Assembly: GCA_049967595.1 (NCBI GenBank)
Contig: JBMFSK010000003.1
Span: 1 to 44,222 of the forward strand
Length of the DNA stretch: 44,222 nucleotides
Source of the DNA: Thermoplasmata archaeon
Lineage (GTDB): Archaea > Thermoplasmatota > Thermoplasmata > Thermoplasmatales > ARK-15
Direction: 5' to 3'
Both the position numbers and the translations under genes were made by a program. The notes below the pieces were generated by a model. The model searched no databases. It was not told where the DNA came from and worked only from the letters and a program-made list of their open reading frames with translations. This document shows positions 1,445 to 36,003 of this stretch, piece by piece. Numbering within the stretch: the first letter of the stretch is position 1; each line of letters starts with the position of its first letter.

Positions 1445-2269
1445 TTAAACTATTAATGAAAAAAGTAATAAAAATGGTATTGGTATATCAAATTTAAATA
1501 AATTGTCAACATTTAATTTATTTATGTATGGTAATCTTACAAATAAGAGAATAATAATAATTAATGAAATAATAAGCCTGATTAAAGACCCATAGGAAAA
1601 AATAATAAGAAATATAGAGGATAAAAAATAAAAGAAAGCGGTAGGCCATATTATTTTCCCATTTAATATCACGGGAATTGATTTTATGTCCATTTCTTTA
1701 TCAAATTCTCTATCCTGGTTTTGATAAATAATATCAAAGCCAGCAATCCAAAAAGAAACAAAGATCATAAGATAATATGTAGCCAGGAAATAAGGGAACA
1801 ATCCTTTGGCTCCTATATATCCACCTAAAACAATGATGCCTATGGAAAAGCCTAAAAAAATATGAGATACGGCCACAAATTTTTTTGTCTTGGGATAAAT
1901 ATAAAATAATAGAAGTATAACCGGTGCAAACAGGCCTGCCAATGTATTCAATAGAAGTGACGAAATCTCAAAAATAACTGCAGATCCAAAAAATATCAAA
2001 TATGCCTGTTTCAGAGAAATTTTTCCAGTAACAAGTTCCCTATCCTTTGTTCTAGGATTTATTTTATCCAAAGGTAAATCCTCTATTCTATTGATCACCA
2101 TACCAGCTATTCTTGCTGCAATAGCTGATATAGTGATTAAAATAAATATCTTCAAGGTGATTACATTAGCCAAAATCATGCCGACATATCCAAAAGGTAA
2201 ATCGAAAAGAGTGTGTTCTATTTTAATAAATTTTAAAAAATCTTTAAGTTTATTGTTTAACTTAATCAT
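1445..2269 (-). CDS. UbiA-family prenyltransferase (MqnP-like)
   Basis: IKIEHTLFDLPF N-terminus, NRIEDLPLDKINPRTKDR Asp-rich motif, FDIIYQNQDREFD second motif, hydrophobic; overlaps ubiD-family gene by 4 nt. Confidence 0.88.
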   Translation of the reverse strand: MIKLNNKLKDFLKFIKIEHTLFDLPFGYVGMILANVITLKIFILITISAIAARIAGMVINRIEDLPLDKINPRTKDRELVTGKISLKQAYLIFFGSAVIFEISSLLLNTLAGLFAPVILLLFYIYPKTKKFVAVSHIFLGFSIGIIVLGGYIGAKGLFPYFLATYYLMIFVSFWIAGFDIIYQNQDREFDKEMDIKSIPVILNGKIIWPTAFFYFLSSIFLIIFSYGSLIRLIISLIIIILLFVRLPYINKLNVDNLFKFDIPIPFLLLFSLIV

Positions 2270-3690
2270 AAGAATCCATATTTTCTAAATTTTTTATTTA
2301 GATTTTCATCGTTAAATTCTATTATCCTATCCGGCCAAGGTCTATCAAAACCTTCATTTTTTTCCTTCCTAGTTGCATCTATGATCATTTTTCCACCAGC
2401 GTTAGGATAGAGAGATGCATGATCAAGTGAATCCGCCACTGAAAGATTAATTAATTCTACATCCCTTATGGGATCCGTTCTAGTGGAAATGGCCCAAAAT
2501 ACTTCCCTTCTGTCCCTTATATTAATATCTTTATCGACAACGATCACATACTTTGTAAACATCATCTGGCCCATTGATAAAATGGACATTCCTACTTTTC
2601 TGCCCTGCCCGGGATATTTTTTATCAATTGAAACAATTGCTAAATTATTGAATATTCCTTCCTCCGGTAGGAATAGATCAACGATCTCAGGATTCTGGAA
2701 TTTTATTATAGGAAGGAAAATTCTTTGTATGGCATCGCCAATAATAACATCCTCATTCCATAATTTACCTACAACAGTTGCGTGGTAAATTGGTTTTTTT
2801 CTGTGAAAAATCTTTTTAACATGGAACACAGGATATTTTTCAACAGGTGTATAATAACCAGTGTGATCTCCAAAAGGCCCCTCATCCCTCATTTCATTAG
2901 GATCAACATAACCTTCTAGGATAAATTCAGCATTTGCAGGATAGTATAGATCTACTGTCTCCCCCTTTACCACTTCTAAGTTTTCCCCCATTAAAAGTCC
3001 AGCAAAAGATAGTTCATTGAAGCCCTCGGGAAGTGGTAAAATGGCGCTAAATAATACGGCTGGATGAACGCCTATCGCAACTGCAACGTCTAGTGTTTTT
3101 CCCATTTCCTTTGCTTTTAATAAGTGCATATTTCCAGTTTTCTGCATTTGCCAGTGCATACCTGTTGTTTCACCATCATACACCTGCATCCTGTATACCC
3201 CTGCATTGTATTCACCTGTTTCTGGGTTTTTTGTTATTACTACTGGCCAGGTAATATATTTACCTCCATCGTTAGGCCATGTTTTTAAAATTGGTATATC
3301 ATTTAAATCCAAATCATCACTCGATTCTTTAACAGGACCATTCCCTTTTTCTTCTAATGATAAATTTTTCAGCTCTTTAAATATTTCATAGCCCTTTAAC
3401 AAAGAAGGTTTTGAAAATATCGTGCCTATAATTCTTTCAAATATACCTACAATGTCATCAATCCTTGTTCCGAGAAGAAGTTCTAATCTTTTCATATTAC
3501 CGAAGGTATTCATAAGCACCGGAATATCTCCATCATCAACATTATTGAAAATTAATGCTGGTCCATTTTTCTTCTGTACAATGTTTGTAAGTGAAGAAAC
3601 TTCCAAATTAGATGAAAAATGATCATCTATCTCAAGAATGTCTCCATTTTTTTTAAGAATATCTATTGATCTTCTTAAGTCATTCATCAA
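2266..3690 (-). CDS. UbiD-family (prFMN-dependent) decarboxylase, menaquinone-biosynthesis MqnL-like
   Basis: WPNDGGKYIT, YNAGVYRMQ, EGPFGDHTGYY, TKYVIVVDKD and DSLDHAS motifs; coupled to UbiA-family gene. Confidence 0.9.
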   Translation of the reverse strand: MMNDLRRSIDILKKNGDILEIDDHFSSNLEVSSLTNIVQKKNGPALIFNNVDDGDIPVLMNTFGNMKRLELLLGTRIDDIVGIFERIIGTIFSKPSLLKGYEIFKELKNLSLEEKGNGPVKESSDDLDLNDIPILKTWPNDGGKYITWPVVITKNPETGEYNAGVYRMQVYDGETTGMHWQMQKTGNMHLLKAKEMGKTLDVAVAIGVHPAVLFSAILPLPEGFNELSFAGLLMGENLEVVKGETVDLYYPANAEFILEGYVDPNEMRDEGPFGDHTGYYTPVEKYPVFHVKKIFHRKKPIYHATVVGKLWNEDVIIGDAIQRIFLPIIKFQNPEIVDLFLPEEGIFNNLAIVSIDKKYPGQGRKVGMSILSMGQMMFTKYVIVVDKDINIRDRREVFWAISTRTDPIRDVELINLSVADSLDHASLYPNAGGKMIIDATRKEKNEGFDRPWPDRIIEFNDENLNKKFRKYGFL

Positions 3691-8847: not shown

Positions 8848-10110
8848 ATGAAGATAGGAAAAAATATTTCATTTTATGAGGGCGTTTTTTCTTCAATAGC
8901 AGGTGCAGGGCCGCTGGTAAATTTCGCCATCCTGATCTCCTATGCTTATATTTATGCAGGGAATTTTATGTTCATAAGCTTTTCTTTTGCTTTTTTGCTG
9001 TACATCTTTTTTATGAATACCATATATCAACTATCTAAAAACAAAGTAGGCAGCGGTGTTTACTATTTGTTTTTGAAGGATCATGGCTTTTTGAAAAATT
9101 TCATCCATATCTATTTTATTTACGTATTTTCATCATTTGTATCAATCCTGCTTTTCCTAAACTTCATATTTGTTCCATTAATATTCAATGTTCCTATTAT
9201 TTTTTCATACTTAACTTTATTTTCAATTATTATTATAATCATGATTTTGATCAGGTACGGTTTTAGGTCATCTTTGTTATATATTTCAATAGGATCTTTA
9301 CTGGAAATATTATTTATTTTGATATTCAGTCTATTCCTGATCTTACACGTTAATTATATAAATTTAAAATATCCTTCATTTTTTGATCCGGAAGGCATTT
9401 TTATAGGTTCGCTTTTTTCTGTTCTTGTTTTTGCAGGGATAGGGTCTACTGTAAGCTTCGGTGACGTAATAAAAAATCCATATGTGAACGTTAAAAAGTC
9501 CATTTTCACTTCCACAATGATAGAGGGTACAGTATTCATATTTGCATCACTTGCCGTTTCTTTGTTTTTGTTATCGGAAAATATTTTTATTCTACCAAAG
9601 ATGAATATACCTATATGGGGCCTTGTTGGCAAATTCAGAATTTTTTTTATTCCATTTTCAATTCTCTTATTGAACAGCTTTTTTTCAATACTGGTTATTT
9701 ATGGAATTTCATTGTCCAGGACATTTCACAGGACTTATGAAAAGAATATTTCATACGAAAAATCATTATACATTTCATTTTTAATAATTTTTTTATTAAT
9801 TTTATTTTTTATATTTTCATTTGGCCCAATAAATGGTTTTCTTCTTGCAACATCTATTGCAACATTCAACTGGCTAATTTTCCATGATTCTTTGAATTTA
9901 ATCTTGATAAAGAGATTTTACCTTGAAAAAAAGAACATTTTGAAAAATCTTTTACTCCCGGCTCTTGCCATTATTTTTTCGGCTTTAATTTTCTATTATA
10001 TGTTAATTTCATTGACATTTCCTTTTTATCTGGCCCCAATATCAACTTTAATATTATTTTTGATCTATTTCTTGTTCAAAATATTTTCAAAAATTTCAAA
10101 AAATTATTAG
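8848..10110 (+). CDS. APC-superfamily amino-acid permease (divergent)
   Basis: SIAGAGP TM1 motif, GSGVYY, FAGIGSTVSFGDVIKNPYVNVKKSI (APC TM6 and E/DxxNP loop), about 12 TM. Confidence 0.65.
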   Translation: MKIGKNISFYEGVFSSIAGAGPLVNFAILISYAYIYAGNFMFISFSFAFLLYIFFMNTIYQLSKNKVGSGVYYLFLKDHGFLKNFIHIYFIYVFSSFVSILLFLNFIFVPLIFNVPIIFSYLTLFSIIIIIMILIRYGFRSSLLYISIGSLLEILFILIFSLFLILHVNYINLKYPSFFDPEGIFIGSLFSVLVFAGIGSTVSFGDVIKNPYVNVKKSIFTSTMIEGTVFIFASLAVSLFLLSENIFILPKMNIPIWGLVGKFRIFFIPFSILLLNSFFSILVIYGISLSRTFHRTYEKNISYEKSLYISFLIIFLLILFFIFSFGPINGFLLATSIATFNWLIFHDSLNLILIKRFYLEKKNILKNLLLPALAIIFSALIFYYMLISLTFPFYLAPISTLILFLIYFLFKIFSKISKNY

Positions 10111-10505: not shown

Positions 10506-12500
10506 ATGGAAATCAAGAAGATTGCAGTGATTGGATCTGGGGATATGGGGCATGGTATAGCTGAGGTATTTGCGGTGAATGGCTATGAGGTAAACATGGA
10601 GGACATCTCAAAAGAAATGCTTGATAAAGCAATGAACGAGATCAGGGACAGCCTGGAAAAATTGTCAAAAAAGGGAACACTTGGTCAATCATCATTGAGT
10701 GATGTATTATCTAGGGTTAAGACTTTCACTGAAATAGAACCTGCGGTGAAGGATGTCGATCTTGTGATAGAGGCGGTTCCTGAAATAGAGGAACTTAAGA
10801 AAAAGATATTCCAGGATCTGGAAAAATTTACCAGAAAAGACACCATTCTGACGAGCAATACATCGAATATAAGGATCACAGACATTGCAAAAAACATTAC
10901 AAATAGGGACAGAGTTGCGGGTCTTCATTTCTTCAATCCCCCAGTGGTTATGAAACTGGTAGAGGTAATAAAAGGTGATGAAACATCTGATGAGGTGATT
11001 TCCCAGCTTTACGATCTATCGAAAAAGATAGGCAAAATACCTGTAAAAGTCATGAGGGATTCACCAGGTTTCATAGTGAACAGAATCAATGCACCTGACA
11101 TGTTATTGTTCTGCCTATTGATAGAGAATAAAGTTGCCGAACCGGAGGAAATAGATGCATTTGCAAAATTGCAAGGGATGCCAATGGGCCCCTATGAATT
11201 GATTGATTACGTTGGTATTGATGTTGTTTATCATTCAATGGAATATTATGCCAAGACACTCAGTCCGGATTATGGAAAATGCAAAGTTTATGAAGATCTT
11301 TATAACAAGAAATACCTCGGCAAGAAAACTGGCAGAGGATTTTATGATTGGTCATCTGGAAGACCAGTAATCAATACAAAGAAGGCTACCAACAAAGTGG
11401 ATTTGATGGATATTTTTGCAGTTGAGATAAATGAGTCTGTAAAGCTTATTGAGGAAGGAGTTGCAACACCAGATGATATAGAAACGGGTGTAAAATACGG
11501 ATTAAACCGCGCATTTGGTCCTATATCAGTTGCAAAAAGCTTTACAAATGCGGAAGTAAAAGCAAAACTGGATACACTTGCGAAGAGATTCAGCTGCTCC
11601 GTATTCGAGCCTGCGGAATCAATTAAAAATGGAAAGATGAGAGAAGCAATAGATGGAAGGCTAAAGAAAAAAGAAGAGAAGAAGGAGGAAAAGGTTCAGA
11701 AAGAAGCTGTAAAATCATCATCATCTGAACAATTGAACACCATAATCATTGAAAAATATCCATTCAAGGTGGCAAAAATTGTTTTGAACAGGCCCAAGCA
11801 TAATACCATAAACGATGAACTTTTGGATGATCTTGAGAAAGCAATAAAGATGCTCTGGAATGACAATGAAGTATATGTTGTTATAATTACAGGTCAGGGC
11901 AATACGTTATCATCCGGCGCAGATCTATCCCAATATTTTGCAGGAAGTTATCAGTTCCTGGAATTTTCCAGGAAAGGTGAGAGGACATTCAGGCTTTTAT
12001 CAGAAATGCCAAAATTAACCATTGCCGTGATGAAGGGATACGCACTCGGAGGCGGCTTTGAATTATCTTTAGCTTGTGATCTCAGGGTAGGTACTGAGGA
12101 CGTTCAGGTAGGATTCCCTGAGGTTACGCTTGGCCTTATACCTGCCTGGGGTGGATCGCAAAAGCTTGCAAGAGTGGCGGGCTTAGGTAAAGCTATGGAA
12201 ATGATAGTTACGGGCCAGAGAATTACAGGTAAGGAGGCATTTTCTATGGGTATAGTAAACAAGATTTTCAGAGACCCGGACAATGAGGCAGTTGAGTACG
12301 CAAAGGCGATAGCTGAAACATCTGCGCCAATTTCCATGTATCTTGCAAAAAGACTGCTTAATAAGGGCACAGAGGTACCTATGGACATCGGCTTAGAAAT
12401 GGAATCATTTGCAGCCGGTGTTGCTTATTCAACAGAGGACATTAAGGAAGGTATTTCATCATTTTTGCAGAAGAAAAAACCTGAATACAGAGGTAGATAA
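10506..12500 (+). CDS. 3-hydroxyacyl-CoA dehydrogenase / enoyl-CoA hydratase fusion (archaeal HAD-ECH order)
   Basis: GSGDMGHG, EAVPE, SNTS, GLHFFNPP, PGFIVNR; Lys/Glu linker; C-terminal crotonase with AD, GGGFEL and FPEVTLG (both catalytic Glu present). Confidence 0.95.
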   Translation: MEIKKIAVIGSGDMGHGIAEVFAVNGYEVNMEDISKEMLDKAMNEIRDSLEKLSKKGTLGQSSLSDVLSRVKTFTEIEPAVKDVDLVIEAVPEIEELKKKIFQDLEKFTRKDTILTSNTSNIRITDIAKNITNRDRVAGLHFFNPPVVMKLVEVIKGDETSDEVISQLYDLSKKIGKIPVKVMRDSPGFIVNRINAPDMLLFCLLIENKVAEPEEIDAFAKLQGMPMGPYELIDYVGIDVVYHSMEYYAKTLSPDYGKCKVYEDLYNKKYLGKKTGRGFYDWSSGRPVINTKKATNKVDLMDIFAVEINESVKLIEEGVATPDDIETGVKYGLNRAFGPISVAKSFTNAEVKAKLDTLAKRFSCSVFEPAESIKNGKMREAIDGRLKKKEEKKEEKVQKEAVKSSSSEQLNTIIIEKYPFKVAKIVLNRPKHNTINDELLDDLEKAIKMLWNDNEVYVVIITGQGNTLSSGADLSQYFAGSYQFLEFSRKGERTFRLLSEMPKLTIAVMKGYALGGGFELSLACDLRVGTEDVQVGFPEVTLGLIPAWGGSQKLARVAGLGKAMEMIVTGQRITGKEAFSMGIVNKIFRDPDNEAVEYAKAIAETSAPISMYLAKRLLNKGTEVPMDIGLEMESFAAGVAYSTEDIKEGISSFLQKKKPEYRGR

Positions 12501-12502
12501 AC

Positions 12503-13687
12503 ATGCAGGATGTATATTTAGTTGATTATATAAGAACGCCATTTTCGAGGTCCAGGCCGAATGAACCAGAGAGGGATATTTTCAATTCCCTAAGAATGGA
12601 CGATGCAGTAGCAATGCTGCTCAAGGAGATCATAGGAAGGAATAATATTGATCCCATGAGAATAGGGGATGTAATAACAGGATGTGCATTGCAGGCAGAC
12701 GAAAACTGGCTTTATGGTGGCAGGCATCCTATATTTTTAGCAGGATTGCCCGTTGAAGTACCGGCAATGGCAGTTGACAGGGCATGTTCTTCGTCGATGG
12801 TTGCCATGGCCATCGGGTCTTGGGAAATAATGACAGGGAATTCAGACATAACACTGGCTGGTGGCATGGAGCATATGACACATGTTCCTTTAGGTAATAA
12901 CCCGCATATCGCTGTGAATTACAAATTATTAGTCAGGCCGGAATACATGAAATACCAGATGAATATTGGTTACAGCATGGGTTTAACGGCGGAAAAACTG
13001 GCAGAAGTATCGGGAATATCAAAGGACGAGATGGACCAATTTTCACTGAGGAGCCATAAGCTGGCAGGTGAAGCTATAAAAAATGACTGGTTCAAGGGTG
13101 AGATATTACCCGTTCAGGTTGAATCAAATGGTGAGATGATCACCGTTGACAAGGACCAGAGTGTTAGGCCAGATACTACTTTAGAACAGATTAGAAAACT
13201 TCCACCCGCATTCAAGTCCGATGGGGTAATAACAGCGGGAAATTCATCACCCTTAAATGCAGGTGCATCAATGACGATGTTGATGAATGAAAAGACAATG
13301 GATGAATACGGTCTGAAACCAATGGCCAGGGTTGTATCTTTTGGCTGGGCTGGCGTAGACCCGAGCATCATGGGTGAAGGCCCCGTACCCGCATCCAAAA
13401 AGGCATTGGAAAGAGCCAAAATGAAGGTTGAGGACATAGATTATTGGGAGATAAATGAAGCGTTTGCCGTTGTTCCATTGAATGCAATACATAAACTTGG
13501 AATAGACATAAACAAAGTAAACATACATGGTGGGGGCGTAGCAATAGGCCATCCACTTGGTGCTTCAGGCGCTAGAATAACAGGAACCCTTGCAAGAATT
13601 CTGAATGAAAAGAATGCAAAATATGGTCTTGCCACCTTATGCGTTGGTGGGGGCCAGGGTTATGCAACAATACTAGAGAAGGTGTAA
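12503..13687 (+). CDS. Acetyl-CoA C-acyltransferase (thiolase)
   Basis: DRACSSS, NEAF, GHPLGASG, CVGGG motifs. Confidence 0.96.
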   Translation: MQDVYLVDYIRTPFSRSRPNEPERDIFNSLRMDDAVAMLLKEIIGRNNIDPMRIGDVITGCALQADENWLYGGRHPIFLAGLPVEVPAMAVDRACSSSMVAMAIGSWEIMTGNSDITLAGGMEHMTHVPLGNNPHIAVNYKLLVRPEYMKYQMNIGYSMGLTAEKLAEVSGISKDEMDQFSLRSHKLAGEAIKNDWFKGEILPVQVESNGEMITVDKDQSVRPDTTLEQIRKLPPAFKSDGVITAGNSSPLNAGASMTMLMNEKTMDEYGLKPMARVVSFGWAGVDPSIMGEGPVPASKKALERAKMKVEDIDYWEINEAFAVVPLNAIHKLGIDINKVNIHGGGVAIGHPLGASGARITGTLARILNEKNAKYGLATLCVGGGQGYATILEKV

Positions 13688-13690
13688 AAT

Positions 13691-14812
13691 ATGGACTTTT
13701 CCCTACCGCCAGAGCTGGAAGAAAAAAGGAAAATAGTAAGGGCATTTGCTTTGAAAGAATTCCCTGAAGAAAAGAGAAGATATTATGATGAGAATGAGAA
13801 ATTTCCTTTTGAGATAAGGAAAAAAGCCCAGGAGATAGGCCTGCTGAACTATGGGAATTACTGGGATCTTCTGATTACAATTGAAGAACTGTTCAGAGTG
13901 GACCCGGGACTTGGATTCTCGATCTTTGCACCTTTTTTTGGGAATGAAAACATACTGCTTCTCGGAAACGAAGAACAGAAGAAAAAGTACTTTGAACCGG
14001 TAATTCAGGGAGAAAGGATAATGGGATTTGCGGTAACAGAGCCCGTTGCCGGAAGCGATGTTTCAGGCATAGCATCAAAACTTGAGAAACAACCTGACGG
14101 TTCGTACATACTCAATGGCTCGAAGATGTTCATCACAAATGGTACAATAGCCGATCAACTTGTAGTTGTTGCAAGGTCAGGACCCGTACCCTCTGAGCAA
14201 AAGAGGCACCATAATATGTCAATGGTCATAGTTGAAACAAAATGGCCAGGTGTTTCAACAAACAAGCTCTACGGTAAGATGGGAATGAGGGCCTCCGATA
14301 CGGCAGAAGTTATATTTGATAACGTTAGGGTTCCCAAGGAGAATCTTCTGGGTGAAGAAGGTAAAGGATTTTACTATGCAATGAATTTTTTCAACATATC
14401 AAGGATTTACGTTGCAGCTATGGCAATAGGCATAGCCCAGGGAGCGCTAGATATAATAGTTGAAAAGGCCAAAAGGGACAAGGCATTTTCAACCATGGAA
14501 GGAACTCAGTTCACGATAGCGGAAATTGCAACCAGAATAGAAGCGGCAAGATTGATAACATACAAAGCAGCATCATATCTCTTCCAATTCAACCCTGATC
14601 CCGTACTTACAAGCATGGCAAAGTATTATGCGGCTGAAACTGGCACATATGCTACAGAAAAGGCCTTACTTGCAACTGGTATGGATGGAGCTGTAAATTC
14701 ATTGGAAAGAATGTTTAGGGATGCAAAGATTAACGAAATATGGGAAGGATCTAGTGAAATTGAAGAATTGACAATTTATAGAATGTTAATGAAAAAATTG
14801 GAGGGGGAATGA
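13691..14812 (+). CDS. Acyl-CoA dehydrogenase (catalytic, alpha-like subunit)
   Basis: FAVTEPVAGSD, GSKMFITNG, RDAKINEIWEGSSEI; lacks the RxxFG and QxxGGxG motifs. Confidence 0.9.
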   Translation: MDFSLPPELEEKRKIVRAFALKEFPEEKRRYYDENEKFPFEIRKKAQEIGLLNYGNYWDLLITIEELFRVDPGLGFSIFAPFFGNENILLLGNEEQKKKYFEPVIQGERIMGFAVTEPVAGSDVSGIASKLEKQPDGSYILNGSKMFITNGTIADQLVVVARSGPVPSEQKRHHNMSMVIVETKWPGVSTNKLYGKMGMRASDTAEVIFDNVRVPKENLLGEEGKGFYYAMNFFNISRIYVAAMAIGIAQGALDIIVEKAKRDKAFSTMEGTQFTIAEIATRIEAARLITYKAASYLFQFNPDPVLTSMAKYYAAETGTYATEKALLATGMDGAVNSLERMFRDAKINEIWEGSSEIEELTIYRMLMKKLEGE

Positions 14813-15855
14813 ACATGGACGAAGAACATAGGGTTCTAGAATCCGTATTGAAGGAATTTTCACAGAAGGAAATCGAACCCATAAACAAGAGCATTGAACT
14901 CGAAGGTCTTAGCACGGATTTAAAGAACAAGCTAGCATCACAGGGTTTTCTAGGAGCCTTGGCACCTGTTGAAACAGGTGGAGCATCACTAGACAGGCTT
15001 GGTTACACGATCCTTCTCAGGGAAATTGCGGCAGCAAGTCCTTCAGCTGCATTTTACATTTTCATACAGAATTCTCTTGTAATAAAATCATTAATGAAGG
15101 ACAACGAGCTGGATACTATTTCCAGTATAGCATCAGGAAAAATGTCAGGAACAATGGCATTTTCAACGAGGTTGAACATGCTCGATCCCGGGCACATTCA
15201 AAAAAATGGGGGCAAAGTAGAAGGTATTCTAAACAGTGTATTCAACTCAGCAGGTAACATATTCATAGTAAACATTGAAGAAGAGAATAACCTTTATTTG
15301 TTAAGTTCAGGTTATGAGAAATTACCAAACCATGAGCAGCTTGGTTTCAGGGGTGTAACATTCTCACCGGTGAAATTCAATTCAAGCGATTTCAAGCGCC
15401 TGAGCACAAAAATGGATGATATCATAGAGGACATTCATCTTGCAGTTTCATCAATAGCGATAGGCATAGCCAGCGGAGCAATATCAAAGGCGATATCCTA
15501 TGCAAAAGAGAGGGATGCATTCCTTCACAAGTTGAAGGATTTCCAGCCACTGGCATTTAACATGTCACAGGCATATTCAGAACTGGATGCGCTGAATTCA
15601 TATCTCATAGAAGTTGCAGAAGGAGAAAAAGATCTGAAAAAAGAGCTAATGCTGAAATCTGTATCTCTGGATTTTGCGAGAAGAACAGCCAAACTAGCAT
15701 TGCAGGTCCACGGAGGTTATGGTTACCTCATGGATTTCGGCGTTGAAAAATTCTACAGGGATGCAATGTTTCTCTCGATAGTTGGAGGTCACTCACTAAA
15801 AGATAAAATAAAGTTATCAGAGCTCATATTCGAATCCAAAGCCGGCTGGATATAA
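14809..15855 (+). CDS. Acyl-CoA dehydrogenase-like protein (degenerate, beta-like subunit)
   Basis: Retains YAKERDAF..FQ, LQVHGGYGY and EKFYRDA; lacks TEPxxGSD and the YEG catalytic Glu; ATGA overlap with upstream ACAD. Confidence 0.85.
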   Translation: MNMDEEHRVLESVLKEFSQKEIEPINKSIELEGLSTDLKNKLASQGFLGALAPVETGGASLDRLGYTILLREIAAASPSAAFYIFIQNSLVIKSLMKDNELDTISSIASGKMSGTMAFSTRLNMLDPGHIQKNGGKVEGILNSVFNSAGNIFIVNIEEENNLYLLSSGYEKLPNHEQLGFRGVTFSPVKFNSSDFKRLSTKMDDIIEDIHLAVSSIAIGIASGAISKAISYAKERDAFLHKLKDFQPLAFNMSQAYSELDALNSYLIEVAEGEKDLKKELMLKSVSLDFARRTAKLALQVHGGYGYLMDFGVEKFYRDAMFLSIVGGHSLKDKIKLSELIFESKAGWI

Positions 15856-15856
15856 T

Positions 15857-16261
15857 TTAAAAATCTTTCAGAAAGTAGACGCCCTGCGCATGTGCGCAGA
15901 GCTTTCCTTTTCCATCATAAATGTTTATTGATGCAAAGGCTAAATGTTTTCCTTTTCTTTCTATTTTTCCTTCACCTATTACAGGGCCATTTTCAATAGA
16001 CTCCAGGAATTCTATATTTAATGATATTGTTACTTGATTTTTTCCAGTAAGAAGGGTCGACACTGAAGTGCCACCAGTAGAATCCGCAAGTGTGGCAATT
16101 GCACCACCATTTGCGATACCTCCGAGCCTAGTTATTTCCTCCCGAAAATCCATTGACAGCTTTGCATAACCTTCTTCAAGGGAAAGAATCTTTATTCCGA
16201 CATGTTTTAAAAAAGGGTCCATTTCTATGACAGATTTCAGGAATTCATATTTTTCATCCAT
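15857..16261 (-). CDS. PaaI-family thioesterase
   Basis: GGIANGGAIATLADSTGG motif, hotdog length 134 aa. Confidence 0.88.
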   Translation of the reverse strand: MDEKYEFLKSVIEMDPFLKHVGIKILSLEEGYAKLSMDFREEITRLGGIANGGAIATLADSTGGTSVSTLLTGKNQVTISLNIEFLESIENGPVIGEGKIERKGKHLAFASINIYDGKGKLCAHAQGVYFLKDF

Positions 16262-20923: not shown

Positions 20924-21652
20924 ATGGAATCAAAGGATTGGAGAATATTGTTATATTCGATATTAATAGGTATAGTTATTCTGCTGATTGCTTTTATGGT
21001 ATTGGATTCTCTTATACTTATATATCCTATTATTATGTTTTATCTTTTCCATAGAATGAAAATATGGCAAACAAAAAAAAGAGCAAAACTTGGAACAATT
21101 GCGATACTCATTGTTTCATTAGTATCTCTAATTTATTATCCAATAGGAAGTTCAAGTTTGAACCAGTATTATGAAACTTATCATATTTCAGGATCAAATC
21201 AGACTATAGTAAAGAATGTAAGCTTTACCATTTACCCGTCAAACATGTTCTATTTGAATATAACAACGACAAAGACAGTCCATTCACATTTAAGTTTAAG
21301 TTACATAAATGAATCCACTGGAAACACTGTGCCTATAATGAATTTTTCATCGAATTCAACGTTAGAAAATGGAAATTATATTACAACCTTTACCATAAAT
21401 GTTAAAAATTTATCATCAGGTATTTACATTTCAAATGTTTCTATAAACAATGGATCACCATCTGTTATTGTTTTTGCACCGAGGATGCTTTCTTCACAGG
21501 AATTTAATTCTATAGTAAATAGGATTGCGCTTTTTGATACTATTTATCTTTTCATATACGTGTTTTTAATGGCTGAAATATTCTTTTTGGCCATAATATT
21601 TGGTGCACACACTATGCGTAGAGGTAAACAAGTTATTTCAAAACAGACATAA
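20924..21652 (+). CDS. Membrane protein with N-glycosylation-sequon-rich extracellular domain
   Basis: 2-3 N-terminal TM segments, about 120-aa Asn/Ser/Thr-rich loop with 9 N-x-S/T sequons, C-terminal TM. Confidence 0.7.
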   Translation: MESKDWRILLYSILIGIVILLIAFMVLDSLILIYPIIMFYLFHRMKIWQTKKRAKLGTIAILIVSLVSLIYYPIGSSSLNQYYETYHISGSNQTIVKNVSFTIYPSNMFYLNITTTKTVHSHLSLSYINESTGNTVPIMNFSSNSTLENGNYITTFTINVKNLSSGIYISNVSINNGSPSVIVFAPRMLSSQEFNSIVNRIALFDTIYLFIYVFLMAEIFFLAIIFGAHTMRRGKQVISKQT

Positions 21653-29357: not shown

Positions 29358-31211
29358 ATGTTTGGAGTGTTTGGAAAAATCCTGAAAATAGATTTAAGCA
29401 CAGAGAAAATAGAAGAAATTGAAGTTGAAGAAAATATATACAGAAAATTCCTAGGCGGTTACGGTTTGGGAGTATGGTATATCTACAGGAACTTAAAACC
29501 TGGAATAGAACCACTCGGTCCTGAAAACATTCTTGGCTTTATTCCTGGAATGTTCAACAGCGTTAATGTACCTATGGCTGGAAGATTAATGGCTGCAACA
29601 AAATCTCCATTAACAGGAACTTGGAATGATTCAAATGTAGGTGGATTTATAGGTCCGGAGTTAAAAAGGACTGGATACGATGGTATCTTTATCCAAGGTA
29701 TTTCAAAAGAACCTGTTTACATACATATGGAAAATGAAGTAGAAATATTGGATGCAAAAGATTTATGGGGGAAAAGTGCACTTGAAACTGAAAATGTTTT
29801 AAGAAGTAAATATACCGGTTCTCAGGTACTATCCATAGGAAGACCAGGTGAAAATCTTTCTCTTATTTCTGCTATAATCACGGATAGGGGTAGGGCACTC
29901 GGGAGATCAGGCGTGGGTGCAGTAATGGGTTCAAAAAGATTGAAGGCAATAGTTGCAAAAGGTACAAAAAATGTTGAAATCTATGACAAAGAAAAGTTGA
30001 GAAAATTATCAAATGAAATGCTTGAAAGAATGAACCCTAATAAGAGTAAAAGTGCTATGTGGTGGCATAAATATGGCACAATAGGCGGAAATGAATTTTC
30101 ACACCTTTCTGGTGATACTCCCATAAAAAATTGGAAAGGAATAGGTACAATAGATTTTGGCACAGAAAAAGCAAAAGCTATAAGCGGTGAAAATATCATC
30201 AAGGACAATGTGAAAAGTTATGGCTGTGCTCAGTGCCCTGTCGCATGTGGTGCAATAATAAGAAGGGAAACAAGATTCGGTCCGGTTGAAGGCCACAGAC
30301 TTGAGTATGAGGGCGGGGGTATGCTTGGAGGATTATTGCTTAACAGCGACTTAGATTCAATTGTTTACAGTTTTGAACTCGCAAACAGGTATGGATACGA
30401 TGTAATATCTCTTGGTGAGGTAATTGCTTTTTCAATGGAACTTTATGAAAATGGAAAGATCAGAAAGGAAGATCTCGGGTTTGAATTAAAATGGGGTAAT
30501 GGTGAGGCGGTAGTAAAATTTATAGAAATGTTAAACAAAAACGAAGGTATTGCAAAAATATTGAATCAGGGAGTTATGAGAGCATCCAAAATGTTTAAAT
30601 CAGATGAATTTGCTGTTCATGTTCATGGCCAGGAACTACCAGCGCATGATCCTAAATATCTGCCTAGTTTGGCAACAACATATGTTGCTGATCCAACACC
30701 CGGAAGACATACAGCGGGAGGAATAGGTTTCTCAGAAGGTGGTTCAATAAAACCTAGATTTCAAGTAAATTATGAATTTCCAAAGTTTGAAAAATATTCT
30801 TATACTGGGAAAGGTCTAGCTCATGCTATAATCAGCAACCAAACACAGGTAGAAAATTCCCTTGGATTCTGTATATTTTCTGATACATTTTCTCCATTTC
30901 CATATGCGGATTTGACTAATGCATTAACAGGTTGGGACGTAACAAATGATGAATTAATGAAAATAGGTGAGAGAATTCAAGATTTAAGACATTTATTCAA
31001 CTTACGGGAAGGATTAAAGCCTAAGGATTTTGTTCTTCCAGAAAGGGCACAGGGTATACCCCCGCACAGTGATGGACCATTAAAAGGTATTACTATAGAT
31101 GTCGATTCTTTAGTGAATGAATATTATAGAGCAATGGAATGGGATATTGATACAGGTATGCCGAGCAATAAAAAAATCAAAGATCTGGATCTTCAAGAAT
31201 TTATTTTTTAA
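29358..31211 (+). CDS. aor: Tungsten-dependent aldehyde:ferredoxin oxidoreductase family protein
   Basis: KSPLTG, GRSGVGAVMGSKRLKA, CAQCPVAC, LEYE, HDPK, GFCIF. Confidence 0.92.
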   Translation: MFGVFGKILKIDLSTEKIEEIEVEENIYRKFLGGYGLGVWYIYRNLKPGIEPLGPENILGFIPGMFNSVNVPMAGRLMAATKSPLTGTWNDSNVGGFIGPELKRTGYDGIFIQGISKEPVYIHMENEVEILDAKDLWGKSALETENVLRSKYTGSQVLSIGRPGENLSLISAIITDRGRALGRSGVGAVMGSKRLKAIVAKGTKNVEIYDKEKLRKLSNEMLERMNPNKSKSAMWWHKYGTIGGNEFSHLSGDTPIKNWKGIGTIDFGTEKAKAISGENIIKDNVKSYGCAQCPVACGAIIRRETRFGPVEGHRLEYEGGGMLGGLLLNSDLDSIVYSFELANRYGYDVISLGEVIAFSMELYENGKIRKEDLGFELKWGNGEAVVKFIEMLNKNEGIAKILNQGVMRASKMFKSDEFAVHVHGQELPAHDPKYLPSLATTYVADPTPGRHTAGGIGFSEGGSIKPRFQVNYEFPKFEKYSYTGKGLAHAIISNQTQVENSLGFCIFSDTFSPFPYADLTNALTGWDVTNDELMKIGERIQDLRHLFNLREGLKPKDFVLPERAQGIPPHSDGPLKGITIDVDSLVNEYYRAMEWDIDTGMPSNKKIKDLDLQEFIF

Positions 31212-31333
31212 ATTTTTCTTAAAAATTAAAATTAAGTTTTTGTAAAATTTTTTTAAGTAAAAAATATTCTAAATATGTTTACATAAAAGAAAAAAACTTA
31301 TTAGTTATTATTCTATCACTAATCGGTGAGAAA

Positions 31334-32467
31334 GTGATTCTAAAGGAGGATTACCAGCTAATTCGAAATCTTGCTAGAAATTTTGCAGAAAAATATATTG
31401 TACCATTAAACAGAACTATTGAAGAAAAAACTATTCCGAGGACTCTTTACGATGAGTTAGGAAAGATAGGCTTTACGGGAGTAATAATACCCCAAGAATA
31501 TGGCGGTTCAGGTTTTGATACATTAAGTTATGTAATAATTCTTGAGGAACTGGCAAGAATATCCCCCTCTGTATCAGTAGCAATGGACGTACAGAATGGT
31601 CTTGTTGAATACCCTATCTATACATGGGGCTCTGAGAATCTTAAAAGAAAATATTTACCAAAACTCTGTTCAGGTGAGTATATTGGAGGCTATGCATTGA
31701 CTGAACCCCAGGCAGGCTCTGACGCAGCCAATGTTCAACTTAAAGCGGAAAAGCATGGTGATGAATATATCCTTAACGGTAGTAAATTTTTTATTACAAA
31801 TGCGAACCATGCAAGTGTCTTTATCGTATTTGCAAGAACATCAACCGAAAAGAAAAGGCATGAAGGGATCACAGCATTTGTTGTTGAAAAGAATAAAGCC
31901 GGATTTAAGATTGGTGAGGACTATAAAAAATTAGGTGTGAGAGGATCAAGCACTGCTGAGCTAGTATTTGAAAATGTTATCGTCCAGGAGGAGAATATGC
32001 TAGGTGAATTAGGGAAGGGCTTCTACATTGCAATGAATACGCTAAATATGGGAAGAATAGGTATAGGTGCTCAGGCTTTGGGTATTGCTCAGGCATCTGT
32101 AGATAAGAGCATCGATTATATGAAACAGCGTGAGGCATTTGGGGAAAAAATTGCTGAATTTCAGGGTCTCCAATTCACTCTTTCTGAGATAGTAACACAA
32201 CTAGAGGCTGCAAGGTTTTTAGTTTATGATGCTGCAATGCGTGCAGATAATAACCTTCCATTGATAAAAGAGGCAAGCATGGCAAAGTATTATTCTAGCA
32301 AGGTAGCTATGGACGCTTCCAGGTTTGCGGTTCAGGTTCACGGTGGCTATGGCTTCATAGAGGATTTTGATGTTGAAAGATACTATAGGGATGCTAAAAT
32401 TACAGAAATATACGAAGGCACTTCTGAAATACAGAAGCTTGTAATTGCTAGGGAGCTTCTGAAGTGA
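31334..32467 (+). CDS. Short-chain (butyryl/isobutyryl-type) acyl-CoA dehydrogenase
   Basis: Complete motif set: ALTEPQAGSD, KFFITN, REAFG, QVHGGYG, RDAKITEIYEGTSEIQ. Confidence 0.93.
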   Translation: MILKEDYQLIRNLARNFAEKYIVPLNRTIEEKTIPRTLYDELGKIGFTGVIIPQEYGGSGFDTLSYVIILEELARISPSVSVAMDVQNGLVEYPIYTWGSENLKRKYLPKLCSGEYIGGYALTEPQAGSDAANVQLKAEKHGDEYILNGSKFFITNANHASVFIVFARTSTEKKRHEGITAFVVEKNKAGFKIGEDYKKLGVRGSSTAELVFENVIVQEENMLGELGKGFYIAMNTLNMGRIGIGAQALGIAQASVDKSIDYMKQREAFGEKIAEFQGLQFTLSEIVTQLEAARFLVYDAAMRADNNLPLIKEASMAKYYSSKVAMDASRFAVQVHGGYGFIEDFDVERYYRDAKITEIYEGTSEIQKLVIARELLK

Positions 32468-32472
32468 TATTT

Positions 32473-32871
32473 ATGAGAAAAATAAGAATTTTAATAGCAA
32501 AACCAGGATTGGATGGTCATGATAGGGGTGCAAAGGTTCTAGCAAGATCCCTAATGGATGAAGGTTTTGAGGTGATATATACTGGAATACATCAGACTGC
32601 TGAGGACATAGTTAGGACAGCTATTGAAGAAGATGTTGATGTAATCGGATTGAGTGTTCTTTCAGGAGCACACATGTATCATTTCAGAAGGGTGCTTGAG
32701 CTTATGAAAGATGAAGGCATAAATGATGTTTTGTTAATAGGCGGAGGTATAGTTCCAGAAGAGGATAAAAATGTACTTTTAAAATTGGGTGTAGATGCTA
32801 TATTCAATCCTGGAACAAGCATTCAAGAAATATCTGATTTCATTAGAAAGAATCTAAGGAGACCTTTATGA
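32473..32871 (+). CDS. Acyl-CoA mutase small subunit (B12-binding domain)
   Basis: KPGLDGHDRG (DxHxxG), GLSVLSGAH, GGG. Confidence 0.95.
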   Translation: MRKIRILIAKPGLDGHDRGAKVLARSLMDEGFEVIYTGIHQTAEDIVRTAIEEDVDVIGLSVLSGAHMYHFRRVLELMKDEGINDVLLIGGGIVPEEDKNVLLKLGVDAIFNPGTSIQEISDFIRKNLRRPL

Positions 32872-33791
32872 ATTTGAAAGAAATGTTACTTGATAAGAAA
32901 GAAATGTCAAAAATCATGACTAAGATAGAGAATGGTGACGAAGATCTTTCATCAGAGATTTTAAAACATATTAAGGATGCAAGGATCATAGGTGTTACAG
33001 GTGTTCCAGGTAGCGGAAAATCCACGCTGATTGCAAAATTATCTTCAAGATTATTGGAAATAAACCATAAGGTAGGTATATTAGGAATAGATCCATCGAG
33101 CCCATTCAGCGGTGGAGCAGTCTTGGGAGATAGGGTAAGGATGAAGGAACTGAATAAATACGAGAATGTTTTCATAAGGAGCATCTCTACCCGTGGAAAG
33201 ATTGGGGGACTTAGCTATTATACTACAGATTTTGTTAATGTTCTTGATGCTGCTGGTTATGATACCATATTCATAGAAACTGTAGGGACTGGGCAGGATG
33301 AGGTAGATGTTTTCAACATTGCACACACTATTCTTGTTTTACAGGTACCTACTCTTGGTGATGAAGTCCAGGTAATAAAAGCGGGTCAGCTTGAAATTGG
33401 GGATATTTATGTGGTGAACAAGGCTGATCAGGGCCCAGCAGATGAAAAAATAAAAGAATTGAATCTCATACTTAAAAAGAGGGAGAACGGTTGGCAGCCA
33501 AAAGTAATTAAGAGTATAGCAGTAAGAAGCATAGGCATAGATGAAATCATTCAGTCCATAGATGAACACTGGCAATTTGTAAAATCTTCGGGGCTGCTAG
33601 AAAAGAAAATAAATCTAAGAATTAAATATCTTCTTAAGCAGCACGCAATGGAAAAACTTGACAGGATCATGGAATCTGAAGTCATTGATTCATATGCTGA
33701 TGAAATAATAAAAGGTAAAAATATGCGTGAAATTGTTAAGGAAATAATTACAAAGGTAGGTGTTGAATATGGAAAAGGAGGAAATGTATAA
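32868..33791 (+). CDS. meaB: MeaB/ArgK GTPase chaperone of B12 mutase
   Basis: [38 protein letters not shown]. Confidence 0.95.
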   Translation: MNLKEMLLDKKEMSKIMTKIENGDEDLSSEILKHIKDARIIGVTGVPGSGKSTLIAKLSSRLLEINHKVGILGIDPSSPFSGGAVLGDRVRMKELNKYENVFIRSISTRGKIGGLSYYTTDFVNVLDAAGYDTIFIETVGTGQDEVDVFNIAHTILVLQVPTLGDEVQVIKAGQLEIGDIYVVNKADQGPADEKIKELNLILKKRENGWQPKVIKSIAVRSIGIDEIIQSIDEHWQFVKSSGLLEKKINLRIKYLLKQHAMEKLDRIMESEVIDSYADEIIKGKNMREIVKEIITKVGVEYGKGGNV

Positions 33792-35430
33792 AAAAAAGCT
33801 GGAGGAATGGAAAAAGATATACAGGAAATCATTAGAAACTATGCCTGAAAAGGGGGAATTCAGAACATTATCAGGTATAGATTTGAATACGTTTTATTCA
33901 CCTCTTGAACTTAAAAATTTTGATTATTTAGAAGATCTTGGCAATCCTGGTCAGTTTCCCTTTACAAGGGGGATACATCCTACTATGTACAGGTCAAGGC
34001 TATGGACATTCAGGGAATTTTCAGGCTTCGGTGATGCCATAGAGACCAATAGAAGGTTAAAATACCTTATAGAACATGGTGAAACTGGTCTCAGCATAGC
34101 CTTTGACTACCCAACACTTCTGGGTTTTGATTCTGATGATCCACTTACTAAAGGTGAATTTGGTAAAGCAGGTGTTGCAATAAACACTTTAGAGGATATG
34201 CAGTTAATGTTTAAGGATATTCAATTAAGGGATATTTCAACATCAATGACAATAAATGGTCCTGCTGCAATTCTTTGGGCTCTTTACATTCTTGCCGGTG
34301 AATCACAGGGTGCAAAAAGAAGTGTATTGAGGGGGACTATACAAAATGATATTCTTAAAGAATATATGGCACAGAAATCTTTCATATTTCCTCCTGAACC
34401 ATCTTTAAAGCTTGTAATAGACACCATAGAATTTGGATCTCGGGAACTACCGCTTTGGAATCCTATAAGTATAAGTGGATACCACATAAGGGAAGCAGGT
34501 GCAACTGCAGTACAGGAACTTGCATTTACGCTTGCCAACGGCCTTACTTATGTGGAAAAATCCGTTGAAAGGGGTCTGGACGTTGATGATTTTGCTCCTC
34601 GGTTAAGCTTTTTTTTTGATGCACACATAGATTTCTTTGAGGAGATTGCAAAATTCAGGGCTGCCAGACGCATATGGGCAAAAGAGATGAAAAAAAGGTT
34701 CAACCCTAAAAAGGAAAGGTCCCTGTGGTTGAGATTTCATACACAAACTGCTGGCGTGAGTCTAACCGCACAGCAACCAGAAAACAATATAGTAAGAACA
34801 GCAATAGAGGCTATGGCTGCCGTTTTAGGAGGAACGCAAAGTCTGCACACAAACAGTATGGATGAAGCCTGGGCCTTACCAACGGAAAAAGCAGTTATGA
34901 TAGCACTAAGGACACAGCAAATCATTGCAGAAGAATCAGGCATACCAAATGTAGTAGATCCATTGGGAGGAAGCTATTACATAGAATGGCTAACGGACAA
35001 GATTGAAGATGAAGTATACAAATATTTTGACAGAATAGAAGAGATGGGAGGTGTAATTAAGGGTATTAGATCAGGATTTTTCCAGAGGGAGATCGCAGAA
35101 TCCGCATATAAATTCCAGAAAGATCTTGAAGAGAATAAAAGGATTCTTGTTGGAGTGAATAAATATAAAATAGATGAAAAGCTGGAAATACCAATATTAA
35201 GAATTCCTGATGAACTGGAAGAAAGGCATTTGCAAAGATTAAAAAATTATAAATCAAGCAGGGACTCAGGAAAGGTGAATGAGGCACTTAGAAATATGCA
35301 GAATAATGCTGATGAAAAGAATTTAATGCCATATTTAATTGATGCAATAAAGGCAAAAGCTACATTAGGTGAAATAGTAAGTGCGCTCAAGGATGTATGG
35401 GGGGAATATATAGAACCGGTGATATACTGA
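33769..35430 (+). CDS. Acyl-CoA mutase large subunit, isobutyryl-CoA mutase-like
   Basis: FPFTRG, QNDILKE, ISGYHIREAG, RFHTQT, SLHTNS; Phe in WTFREFSGF and Gln in KEYMAQ at the specificity positions. Confidence 0.9.
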   Translation: MEKEEMYKKKLEEWKKIYRKSLETMPEKGEFRTLSGIDLNTFYSPLELKNFDYLEDLGNPGQFPFTRGIHPTMYRSRLWTFREFSGFGDAIETNRRLKYLIEHGETGLSIAFDYPTLLGFDSDDPLTKGEFGKAGVAINTLEDMQLMFKDIQLRDISTSMTINGPAAILWALYILAGESQGAKRSVLRGTIQNDILKEYMAQKSFIFPPEPSLKLVIDTIEFGSRELPLWNPISISGYHIREAGATAVQELAFTLANGLTYVEKSVERGLDVDDFAPRLSFFFDAHIDFFEEIAKFRAARRIWAKEMKKRFNPKKERSLWLRFHTQTAGVSLTAQQPENNIVRTAIEAMAAVLGGTQSLHTNSMDEAWALPTEKAVMIALRTQQIIAEESGIPNVVDPLGGSYYIEWLTDKIEDEVYKYFDRIEEMGGVIKGIRSGFFQREIAESAYKFQKDLEENKRILVGVNKYKIDEKLEIPILRIPDELEERHLQRLKNYKSSRDSGKVNEALRNMQNNADEKNLMPYLIDAIKAKATLGEIVSALKDVWGEYIEPVIY

Positions 35431-36003
35431 ATGAGATTAAAACAAGGTCTTATTGAGATATATACTGGCAATGGTAAAGGTAAAACAACAGCAGCAATTG
35501 GTCTTGCTATCAGGGCCTCTGGTTACGGCCTAAATGTTTACATAATTCACTTCATGAAATCTAAAAAATATGGAGAATCAAGATCAATTAAAAAATTTGA
35601 AAACATTAAAGAGATATATCTTGGTAAGCCATATTTCATTACAAAGGATCCTAAAATAAAGGAAAATTTTAAGGATGTTGTAGTCTTCGAACCCGGGCAT
35701 CCACCGGATGATTACAGGGAATTAATAAAAAAAGGCATTGAAAAAGTGAAAAAAATATTAAGATCTGGAAAATATGATATAATAATTTTAGATGAAATCA
35801 TAACAGCAAATTATTTTGATTTAATATCTATTGAGGAGATTAAATCCATAATAAAAGAAAAGCCAAGCAATGTTGAAATTGTATTGACGGGTAGATATGC
35901 GTCAAAGGAATTAATTGATCTGGCAGATTTAGTTACTGATATGCAGGAAATAAAGCACCCTTACCAAAAGGGTATTCTTGCTAGGAGAGGTATTGAATAT
36001 TAA
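35431..36003 (+). CDS. cobA: Cob(I)alamin adenosyltransferase (CobA/BtuR type)
   Basis: YTGNGKGKTTAAIG, ILDE, LTGR, KHPY..GI.ARRGIEY. Confidence 0.93.
   Translation: MRLKQGLIEIYTGNGKGKTTAAIGLAIRASGYGLNVYIIHFMKSKKYGESRSIKKFENIKEIYLGKPYFITKDPKIKENFKDVVVFEPGHPPDDYRELIKKGIEKVKKILRSGKYDIIILDEIITANYFDLISIEEIKSIIKEKPSNVEIVLTGRYASKELIDLADLVTDMQEIKHPYQKGILARRGIEY

Follow-up and report, generated by a model that had tools for sequence, protein, structure and literature searches.

Do two adjoining genes, each of which appears to lack one half of a cofactor site, encode a single enzyme, or a working enzyme and its decaying copy? This question is raised by a stretch of 44,222 nucleotides from a Thermoplasmata archaeon (contig JBMFSK010000003.1; the whole stretch is referred to here as the window), which carries two successive genes for acyl-CoA dehydrogenases (ACADs), named ACAD-1 and ACAD-2. 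The genome that carries it is 1.13 Mb in size and 85% complete, the window being its contig C3. Our analysis indicates that ACAD-1 and ACAD-2 are very probably the catalytic alpha subunit and the helper beta subunit of one heteromeric ACAD, which belongs to a conserved archaeal beta-oxidation operon. From the two sequences we infer a physical heteromer with one flavin adenine dinucleotide (FAD) per alpha-beta pair, for which an alpha2beta2 tetramer, with a calculated mass near 161 kDa, is the plausible predicted form. The two genes are as follows.

13691..14812 (+), ACAD-1, 373 aa, 42.1 kDa, with the Pfam ACAD N, M and C domains; proposed alpha (catalytic) subunit, which would bind the acyl-CoA and the isoalloxazine and ribityl-phosphate of FAD and supply the catalytic base Glu352 (motifs TEPVAGSD, FITNG and IWEGSSE).
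14809..15855 (+), ACAD-2, 348 aa, 38.4 kDa, with the Pfam ACAD N and C domains only; proposed beta (non-catalytic) subunit, whose Arg235, Phe238, Gln299 and Gly302-Gly303 would be lent to the ACAD-1-bound FAD, at its ADP part (alignment to 2vig_A).

Open reading frames (ORFs) and Pfam matches gave the same coordinates and ACAD family for both genes as an earlier note on this DNA, made by reading its letters.

Division of the FAD site between ACAD-1 and ACAD-2

In an ordinary ACAD dimer, the flavin ring, the ribityl and the phosphates are bound by one subunit, which also holds the catalytic Glu, and the neighbouring subunit lends Arg, Gln and Gly to the ADP part. For SCAD, the human short-chain acyl-CoA dehydrogenase, section 2.2 of PMC13027082 names S155, G160, S161 and T187 as FAD contacts from the same monomer, assigns the role of catalytic base to E392 and lists R297, Q365 and G369 as contacts that the adjacent monomer contributes.

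Both proteins were aligned with the intact ACAD of the window (ACAD-3, 31334-32467), a canonical enzyme in which both FAD-site halves and the Glu are present. ACAD-1 showed TEPVAGSD at residue 116, FITNG at 147 and IWEGSSE at 350 (Glu352). At the place of VHGGYG in ACAD-3 it had ATGMDG, the replacement that the earlier note had described. The RxxF segment, which had been called deleted from ACAD-1, was indeed shortened and non-matching. It was not a clean deletion: a 4-residue gap was found together with a look-alike RDKAF (R262..F266), one residue off register, and Asp263 was the residue aligned to the Arg column.

ACAD-2 showed ERDAF at 234, DFQP at 244 and QVHGGYGY at 299, with STRLNMLD replacing TEPxxGSD and SIVGGHS (Gly326) replacing the catalytic Glu. 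Its residues were mapped by HMMER alignment to the SCAD chain 2vig_A (chain index + 28 gives the numbering of PMC13027082). By this mapping ACAD-2 retained R297, Q365 and G369 (as R235, Q299 and G303) and had lost E392, G160 and S161 (replaced by G326, M124 and L125). Judged by these alignments, ACAD-2 keeps precisely the residues that would reach the FAD site of a neighbour and has lost its own site, and ACAD-1 is the reverse. Every subunit of a canonical homotetrameric ACAD has both FAD halves and the base. ACAD-1 was found without the Arg, Gln and Gly, and ACAD-2 without the Thr/Gly/Ser/Thr set and the Glu. What the alignments point to is the division of contacts of heteromeric ACADs, with those to ring, ribityl and phosphate in alpha and the lent ADP contacts in beta.

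The SCAD columns were then tallied in 44 pairs from two archaeal classes, that of the window (Thermoplasmata) and that of a genome titled Thaumarchaeota:

S155: Thr in 44/44 of the ACAD-1 type; variable in the ACAD-2 type
G160: Gly in 44/44 of the ACAD-1 type; Gly in 3/44 of the ACAD-2 type
S161: Ser in 44/44 of the ACAD-1 type; Ser in 11/44 of the ACAD-2 type
T187: Thr in 42 and Ser in 2 of the ACAD-1 type; Thr in 4/44 of the ACAD-2 type
E392 (catalytic base): Glu in 44/44 of the ACAD-1 type; Glu in 0/44 of the ACAD-2 type
R297: Arg in 3/44 of the ACAD-1 type; Arg in 44/44 of the ACAD-2 type
R297+3 (Phe): gap in 33/44 of the ACAD-1 type; Phe in 44/44 of the ACAD-2 type
Q365: Gln in 0/44 of the ACAD-1 type; Gln in 38 and Asn in 6 of the ACAD-2 type
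G369: Gly in 0/44 of the ACAD-1 type; Gly in 44/44 of the ACAD-2 type

Chance is ruled out because the reciprocal pattern recurs in all 44 tallied pairs. The complementary FAD-half motifs first read by eye are hence confirmed by the alignment with ACAD-3, by the SCAD mapping and by the tally. Across the ACAD-1 family the RxxF segment was hypervariable, with indels.

With the same-monomer contacts left only in ACAD-1 and the neighbour-lent ones only in ACAD-2, a dimer of alpha and beta would assemble a single complete site for FAD and catalysis. The ring and the substrate would lie in ACAD-1, the ADP would be capped by Arg235, Gln299 and Gly303 of ACAD-2, and the mirror-image site would be dead on both the ACAD-1 and the ACAD-2 side. 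ACAD-1 expressed alone, which is the usual route for an annotated ACAD, should then yield an FAD-poor, inactive protein, and genome annotation would be counting two enzymes where one exists.

Conservation of the gene pair and selection on ACAD-2

The junction of the two genes was inspected in the sequence:

14800..14817 (+), junction of ACAD-1 and ACAD-2

ATGA at 14809-14812 is the ACAD-1 stop overlapping the first ATG of ACAD-2, and GGAGG lies before that start at 14800-14804. This arrangement fits the translational coupling claimed for the genes. Most orthologues start at the second ATG of ACAD-2, at 14815 (MDEEH), and the genes abut under either start, with the stop/start overlap or with a 2-nt gap.

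Relatives of ACAD-2 were numerous (343-361 aa, 37-84% identity), and those with a named source came from Thermoplasmata, Nitrososphaeria, Conexivisphaerales and one Caldisphaera-labelled metagenome-assembled genome. Relatives of ACAD-1 were more conserved (54-92% identity). All intact ACAD-2 loci (25/25) had an ACAD-1 orthologue as their immediate upstream neighbour, in the same orientation. These comprised 6 of 9 archaeal-titled loci and 19 from a genome search of the window's class; L008 (cut), L023 (fragmented) and L036 (a canonical ACAD) were left out. In the window's class, ACAD-2 was present in 19 of 151 genomes, every one of them within the 22 of 151 that had ACAD-1. The three remaining ACAD-1 genomes were G025, which has a divergent intact ACAD-2, G099, in which ACAD-2 is frameshifted, and G062, in which the contig ends inside ACAD-1. 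In the second class (that of the Thaumarchaeota-titled genome of L009), ACAD-2 was found in 19 of 201 genomes, with ACAD-1 upstream in 19/19. The pair and its reciprocal motif loss, for which the earlier note had proposed a survey, are thus conserved in both classes. Genome G056, of the window's order, had two copies of the pair on separate contigs, L087 (C3) and L105 (C42).

The search of genome contigs with the ACAD-2 alignment returned mostly canonical bacterial ACADs, through the shared HGGYGY and EKFYRD motifs. In 69 of the 71 non-archaeal loci scanned, the ACAD present had its highest score against ACAD-3; two (L058 and L084) were without an ACAD ORF of at least 250 aa; these non-archaeal loci were used as outgroups. 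In the trees of the two proteins, built after removal of six loci that were near-duplicates or fragmented, each family formed one clade (Shimodaira-Hasegawa-like approximate likelihood ratio test, SH-aLRT, 100), with subclades that matched between ACAD-1 and ACAD-2. The ACAD-2 branches were roughly 2-3 times the length of those of ACAD-1. Pairs of the Thaumarchaeota-titled class (L009, L136, L144) nested among those of the window's class, and a transfer of the operon from one phylum to another may have occurred.

Mosaic relationships were also seen. In L129 (1115-4460, compared with 12503-15855 of the window), ACAD-1 was 68% identical to that of the window and ACAD-2 87%, and for L132-L134 the values were 92-94% for ACAD-1 and 83-85% for ACAD-2. 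The L129 mosaic suggests recombination within the operon between lineages.

The ratio of nonsynonymous to synonymous substitution (dN/dS) was taken from close metagenomic relatives with unsaturated dS, dS being saturated in comparisons against the window itself. It was 0.03-0.08 for ACAD-2 (for example, dN 0.040 and dS 0.532 for L129 versus L133) and 0.02-0.085 for ACAD-1, with thiolase similar to both. ACAD-2 is under purifying selection. The AlphaFold2 model of ACAD-2 had the full three-domain ACAD fold (mean predicted local distance difference test score, pLDDT, 89.9; predicted template modelling score, pTM, 0.91), and the beta middle domain, for which Pfam gave no match, was part of it. 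Its nearest solved folds were SCAD, ACADSB and Bcd (Foldseek TM 0.83-0.87). The three-domain fold was thus found in both proteins, in ACAD-1 by Pfam and in ACAD-2 by the AlphaFold2 model and Foldseek.

These data bear directly on the notion that ACAD-2 is a decaying duplicate, i.e. a pseudogene beside a working ACAD-1. Its missing catalytic Glu, TEPxxGSD and FITNG, the lack of a Pfam middle domain and the longer branches would fit such decay. However, the frame was intact in 43 relatives from two classes, the Arg, Phe and Gly-Gly were invariant, the dN/dS values were low and the predicted fold was confident and complete. The pseudogene is refuted by the conservation data, and we give it practically no chance. 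Lack of conservation of ACAD-2 and its neutral decay, which the earlier note had named as outcomes that would tell against it, were not what we observed (adjacency in all intact loci of both surveys; low dN/dS). Its preference for an obligate heteromer over a gene plus a pseudogene is upheld by the synteny, the motif retention in 44/44 pairs, the purifying selection, the congruent subclades and the complex model described below.

The modelled complex and the case for a heteromer

A complex of ACAD-1, ACAD-2 and FAD was predicted in three runs, every one of which had an interface score (ipSAE) of 0.91; among three controls the highest value was 0.01. Of 157 solved complexes, 116 reach the mark used for this score, as do 2 of 215 mismatched pairs. 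Between runs at least 93% of the contacts were shared, with a partner pLDDT of at least 93. On the ACAD-1 side the predicted interface was formed by residues 119-123 (the TEPxxGSD loop), 147 and 349-356 (WEG), and on the ACAD-2 side by 236-239 (after Arg235), 245-248 (FQP) and 298-309 (QVHGGYGY). The modelled interface is the arrangement expected from the motif logic.

Several points weigh against the heteromer. The complex score may reflect memory of the abundant solved ACAD dimers, in which case it shows likeness only. Such a score cannot separate a heterodimer from homodimers or prove mutual preference, and self-made alignments and a riding ligand lie outside its calibration. The 44 pairs are not independent: near-identical strains are among them, and some genomes may have entered twice, via two collections. 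An Arg occurs in the aligned column of three of the 44 ACAD-1-type proteins, and the ACAD-1 of the window itself retains an Arg (R262) one residue off register. In the complete genome G099 the frameshifted ACAD-2 is split into 159 + 169 aa (L162:3250-4259), and in the draft genome of Thermogymnomonas acidicola (L023:4812-7005) both genes are fragmented; either the decay is real and the pair would be dispensable in some lineages, or these assemblies contain errors. A search for a fused alpha-beta form in proteins of 610-2000 aa gave none, which is weak evidence. (Two long frames, of 678 aa in L153 and 496 aa in L142, were considered as fusions and rejected, being merely frames that overlap ACAD-1.) The heteromer itself, its FAD content, its acceptor and its substrate are predictions from sequence and models.

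The G099 frameshift, beside an intact ACAD-1, could also speak for a role of ACAD-2 on its own account, as a conserved non-catalytic assembly factor, regulator or scaffold. A homo-oligomer of ACAD-1 would then hold FAD without the Arg, Gln and Gly of a neighbour. Inactive ACAD homologues with other roles do exist, ACAD9 being titled a complex I assembly factor (PDB 8phe/8phf). Against this stands the retention of the lent residues of ACAD-2 (44/44, 44/44 and 38 + 6 of 44) with its own site variable, a pattern that is difficult to account for unless FAD is bound in trans. In addition, the matching ACAD-1 positions were hypervariable with indels, adjacency was strict, and no ACAD-2 was seen without ACAD-1 in the genomes surveyed. 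We consider such a separate role improbable, and the heteromer with FAD shared between its subunits is preferred in what follows.

Operon neighbours and the likely substrate

Four plus-strand genes lie end to end in the operon, namely FadB-like, thiolase, ACAD-1 and ACAD-2. The genes that accompany the pair are:

10506..12500 (+), FadB-like protein in which 3-hydroxyacyl-CoA dehydrogenase is fused to enoyl-CoA hydratase, gene 1 of the operon (Pfam 3HCDH_N, 3HCDH, ECH_1)
12503..13687 (+), thiolase, a conserved operon partner that ends 3 nt before ACAD-1 (Pfam Thiolase_N/C)
15857..16261 (-), PaaI/4HBT-type thioesterase, a convergent context gene 1 nt from the ACAD-2 stop (Pfam 4HBT)

Besides the window, the loci of 20 relatives were examined. 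Thiolase was directly upstream of ACAD-1 in 18/20; the exceptions were L111, which is cut by the contig end, and L012, which had no thiolase match within 1.8 kb upstream. A FadB-like homologue occurred within the examined stretch in 14/20. The convergent thioesterase was also present in L009, L112, L116, L123 and L162. Among 14 neighbouring ORFs tested, eight were AMP-binding acyl-CoA synthetases. Genes for the electron-transferring flavoprotein (ETF; EtfAB) adjoined the cluster in L113, L114 and L117, and the genome of the window had two EtfAB pairs elsewhere. These neighbours fit a beta-oxidation dehydrogenase that would pass electrons to ETF.

In L113:1695-6003 and L011:558-3989, EtfA and EtfB were divergent beside the thiolase-ACAD cluster. 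The same clusters held a protein of ~660-680 aa with CCG and 4Fe-4S domains, NarI-like in L011 (HdrD/NarI-like), which is a candidate membrane ETF oxidoreductase.

The best matches of ACAD-1 were with short- and medium-chain enzymes (Bcd 5ol2_C, MmgC 5lnx_A, Thermus thermophilus 1ukw_A and the NCBIfam AcrC model), and both subunits scored best against ACADs of the short-chain/butyryl-CoA type. From neighbours and scores together we infer the oxidative direction, ETF as the acceptor and straight acyl-CoAs of short to medium chain as substrates.

The earlier note had assigned the pair to bulky or branched substrates. In this explanation the heteromer exists to handle isoprenoid- or steroid-like acyl-CoAs, in the manner of the mycobacterial ChsE enzymes. 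Archaea have isoprenoid lipids, a circumstance that was counted in its favour, and a second site that is dead might, in principle, leave more room. The characterised alpha2beta2 ACADs named in PMC11153573 and PMC8399759, moreover, all act on steroid side chains or rings. The steroid context of such enzymes, however, was not found here: both in the window and in the 20 loci examined from relatives, the pair had generic beta-oxidation genes as its only neighbours, and none for the catabolism of steroids or isoprenoids. By match scores, ACAD-1 was closest to short/medium-chain enzymes. The dicarboxylate pairs like PimCD, as presented in 10.1101/2025.02.21.639450, also untie the design from steroids. 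The assignment to bulky substrates is thus unsupported and, in our estimate, unlikely, and the archaeal pair weakens the link of heteromeric architecture to such substrates.

The same heteromer might also run in the opposite direction, as an enoyl-CoA reductase of the Bcd/CarC/AcrC type with an electron-bifurcating EtfAB. The best-scoring relatives of both subunits do include CarC (6fah_C), Bcd (5ol2_C) and the AcrC model, and EtfAB lies next to the cluster in the three loci given above. Scores, however, were far below the curated cut-offs: on the AcrC model NF042972 (cut-off 640 bits), ACAD-1 reached 262.7 bits and ACAD-2 104 bits. The HdrD/NarI-like membrane Fe-S protein at the ETF side (L113, L011) suggests delivery to a membrane chain, and the operon also has thiolase, FadB-like and acyl-CoA synthetase genes. 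A reductase therefore appears very unlikely, and the oxidative dehydrogenase remains our preferred assignment.

Some further features of the window were recorded. The four operon genes (10506-15855), for which a transfer between phyla was considered above, had a G+C content of 0.40-0.44, compared with 0.344 for the whole window. Just upstream of the operon lies an ORF of 420 aa (8848-10110, +) that, like two others (22-1395, -, 457 aa; 20924-21652, +, 242 aa), matched no Pfam family at E <= 1e-5. A UbiA prenyltransferase and a UbiD decarboxylase gene adjoin each other at 1445-3690 (-). A second cluster for acyl-CoA metabolism is located at 29358-36003, in which an aldehyde:ferredoxin oxidoreductase adjoins the canonical ACAD (31334-32467), followed by MeaB, methylmalonyl-CoA mutase and corrinoid adenosyltransferase.

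Relation to known acyl-CoA dehydrogenases

Half-site heteromeric ACADs are presented in PMC11153573, PMC8399759 and 10.1101/2025.02.21.639450 as peculiar to the bacterial breakdown of steroids, dicarboxylates being a possible second case. If our reading is right, the same design is fixed and selected here in the main beta-oxidation operon of acidophilic, thermophilic archaea, and the pair, being simple and thermostable, lends itself to studying why half of the sites have been lost in ACADs time and again. We tentatively propose, with rather more doubt than confidence, that a short-chain/Bcd-like ancestor gave rise to the split-site ACAD within archaea, separately from the steroid enzymes of bacteria, and that this ACAD became the housekeeping dehydrogenase of an entire beta-oxidation operon moving between Thermoplasmatota and Nitrososphaeria. 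If true, ACADs would have arrived repeatedly at halved active sites as a general solution, rather than in adaptation to substrates of large bulk.

The profile of the ACAD-2 family gave CarC 184.9 bits, as against 69.9 bits (rank 54) for Tcur3481, a heteromer subunit of Thermomonospora curvata. On the IpdE2 model ACAD-2 scored 22.8 bits versus a cut-off of 450, which places it outside that equivalog; the canonical ACADs of the genome scored higher than ACAD-2 on this model (48.7 bits). In a tree with IpdE1/IpdE2 and bacterial split pairs, ACAD-2 joined the bacterial beta/IpdE clade with a low SH-aLRT of 38, as one of two long branches. The bacterial pairs in this tree, IpdE-type and a few unnamed, were sampled from 121 genomes of another phylum, with two above the cut-off. 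In the control genomes, IpdE2 above the cut-off was not found.

The characterised bacterial alpha2beta2 steroid ACADs include ChsE4-ChsE5 (FadE26-FadE27), ChsE1-ChsE2 (FadE28-FadE29) and IpdE1-IpdE2 of Mycobacterium tuberculosis, Tcur3481-Tcur3483 of T. curvata and Scd1AB of Pseudomonas. For ChsE4-ChsE5 and ChsE1-ChsE2, alpha is stated to bind the isoalloxazine and the substrate and to hold the Glu, and beta to bind the ADP-ribose (PMC11153573, section 12; PMC8399759, section 2.5.3). The same two sources give one FAD per alpha-beta heterodimer for the bacterial enzymes. The archaeal pair resembles them in its adjacent, co-oriented genes, in the Glu confined to one subunit and in the motif logic. 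Unlike them, it belongs to a generic beta-oxidation operon and not to a steroid cluster; each of its subunits is almost full-length and has the three domains.

A two-gene ACAD with a non-steroid substrate is found in the proteobacterial PimC/PimD pimeloyl-CoA dehydrogenase and related dicarboxylyl-CoA pairs, and a heterotetramer has been suggested for PimCD-like pairs in 10.1101/2025.02.21.639450. The archaeal proteins differ from these: ACAD-1 scored 76.8 bits on TIGR03204 (cut-off 623.85) and 46.3 on TIGR03203 (cut-off 652.7), no match was listed for ACAD-2, and no dicarboxylate-specific gene context was seen around the pair. CasC of Rhodococcus jostii is described in PMC8399759 as two fused ACAD domains, one with the catalytic base and the other needed for FAD binding; it is a single fused chain, whereas the archaeal proteins come from two genes.

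No description of an archaeal heteromeric ACAD was found in our literature search, which left uncovered the supplementary synteny survey of 2339 archaeal genomes in the Saci_1123 preprint. Saci_1123, an ACAD of Sulfolobus acidocaldarius, is treated as a single protein as far as that source goes. With the canonical homotetrameric enzymes (SCAD, medium-chain acyl-CoA dehydrogenase (MCAD), Bcd, MmgC and the ACAD of the window) the pair shares the fold and the predicted dimer interface, and they are its nearest relatives in sequence. Each of their subunits has both FAD halves and the Glu, whereas the archaeal pair has one half per gene. The archaeal pair is hence a new archaeal example of a heteromeric ACAD design that is already known.

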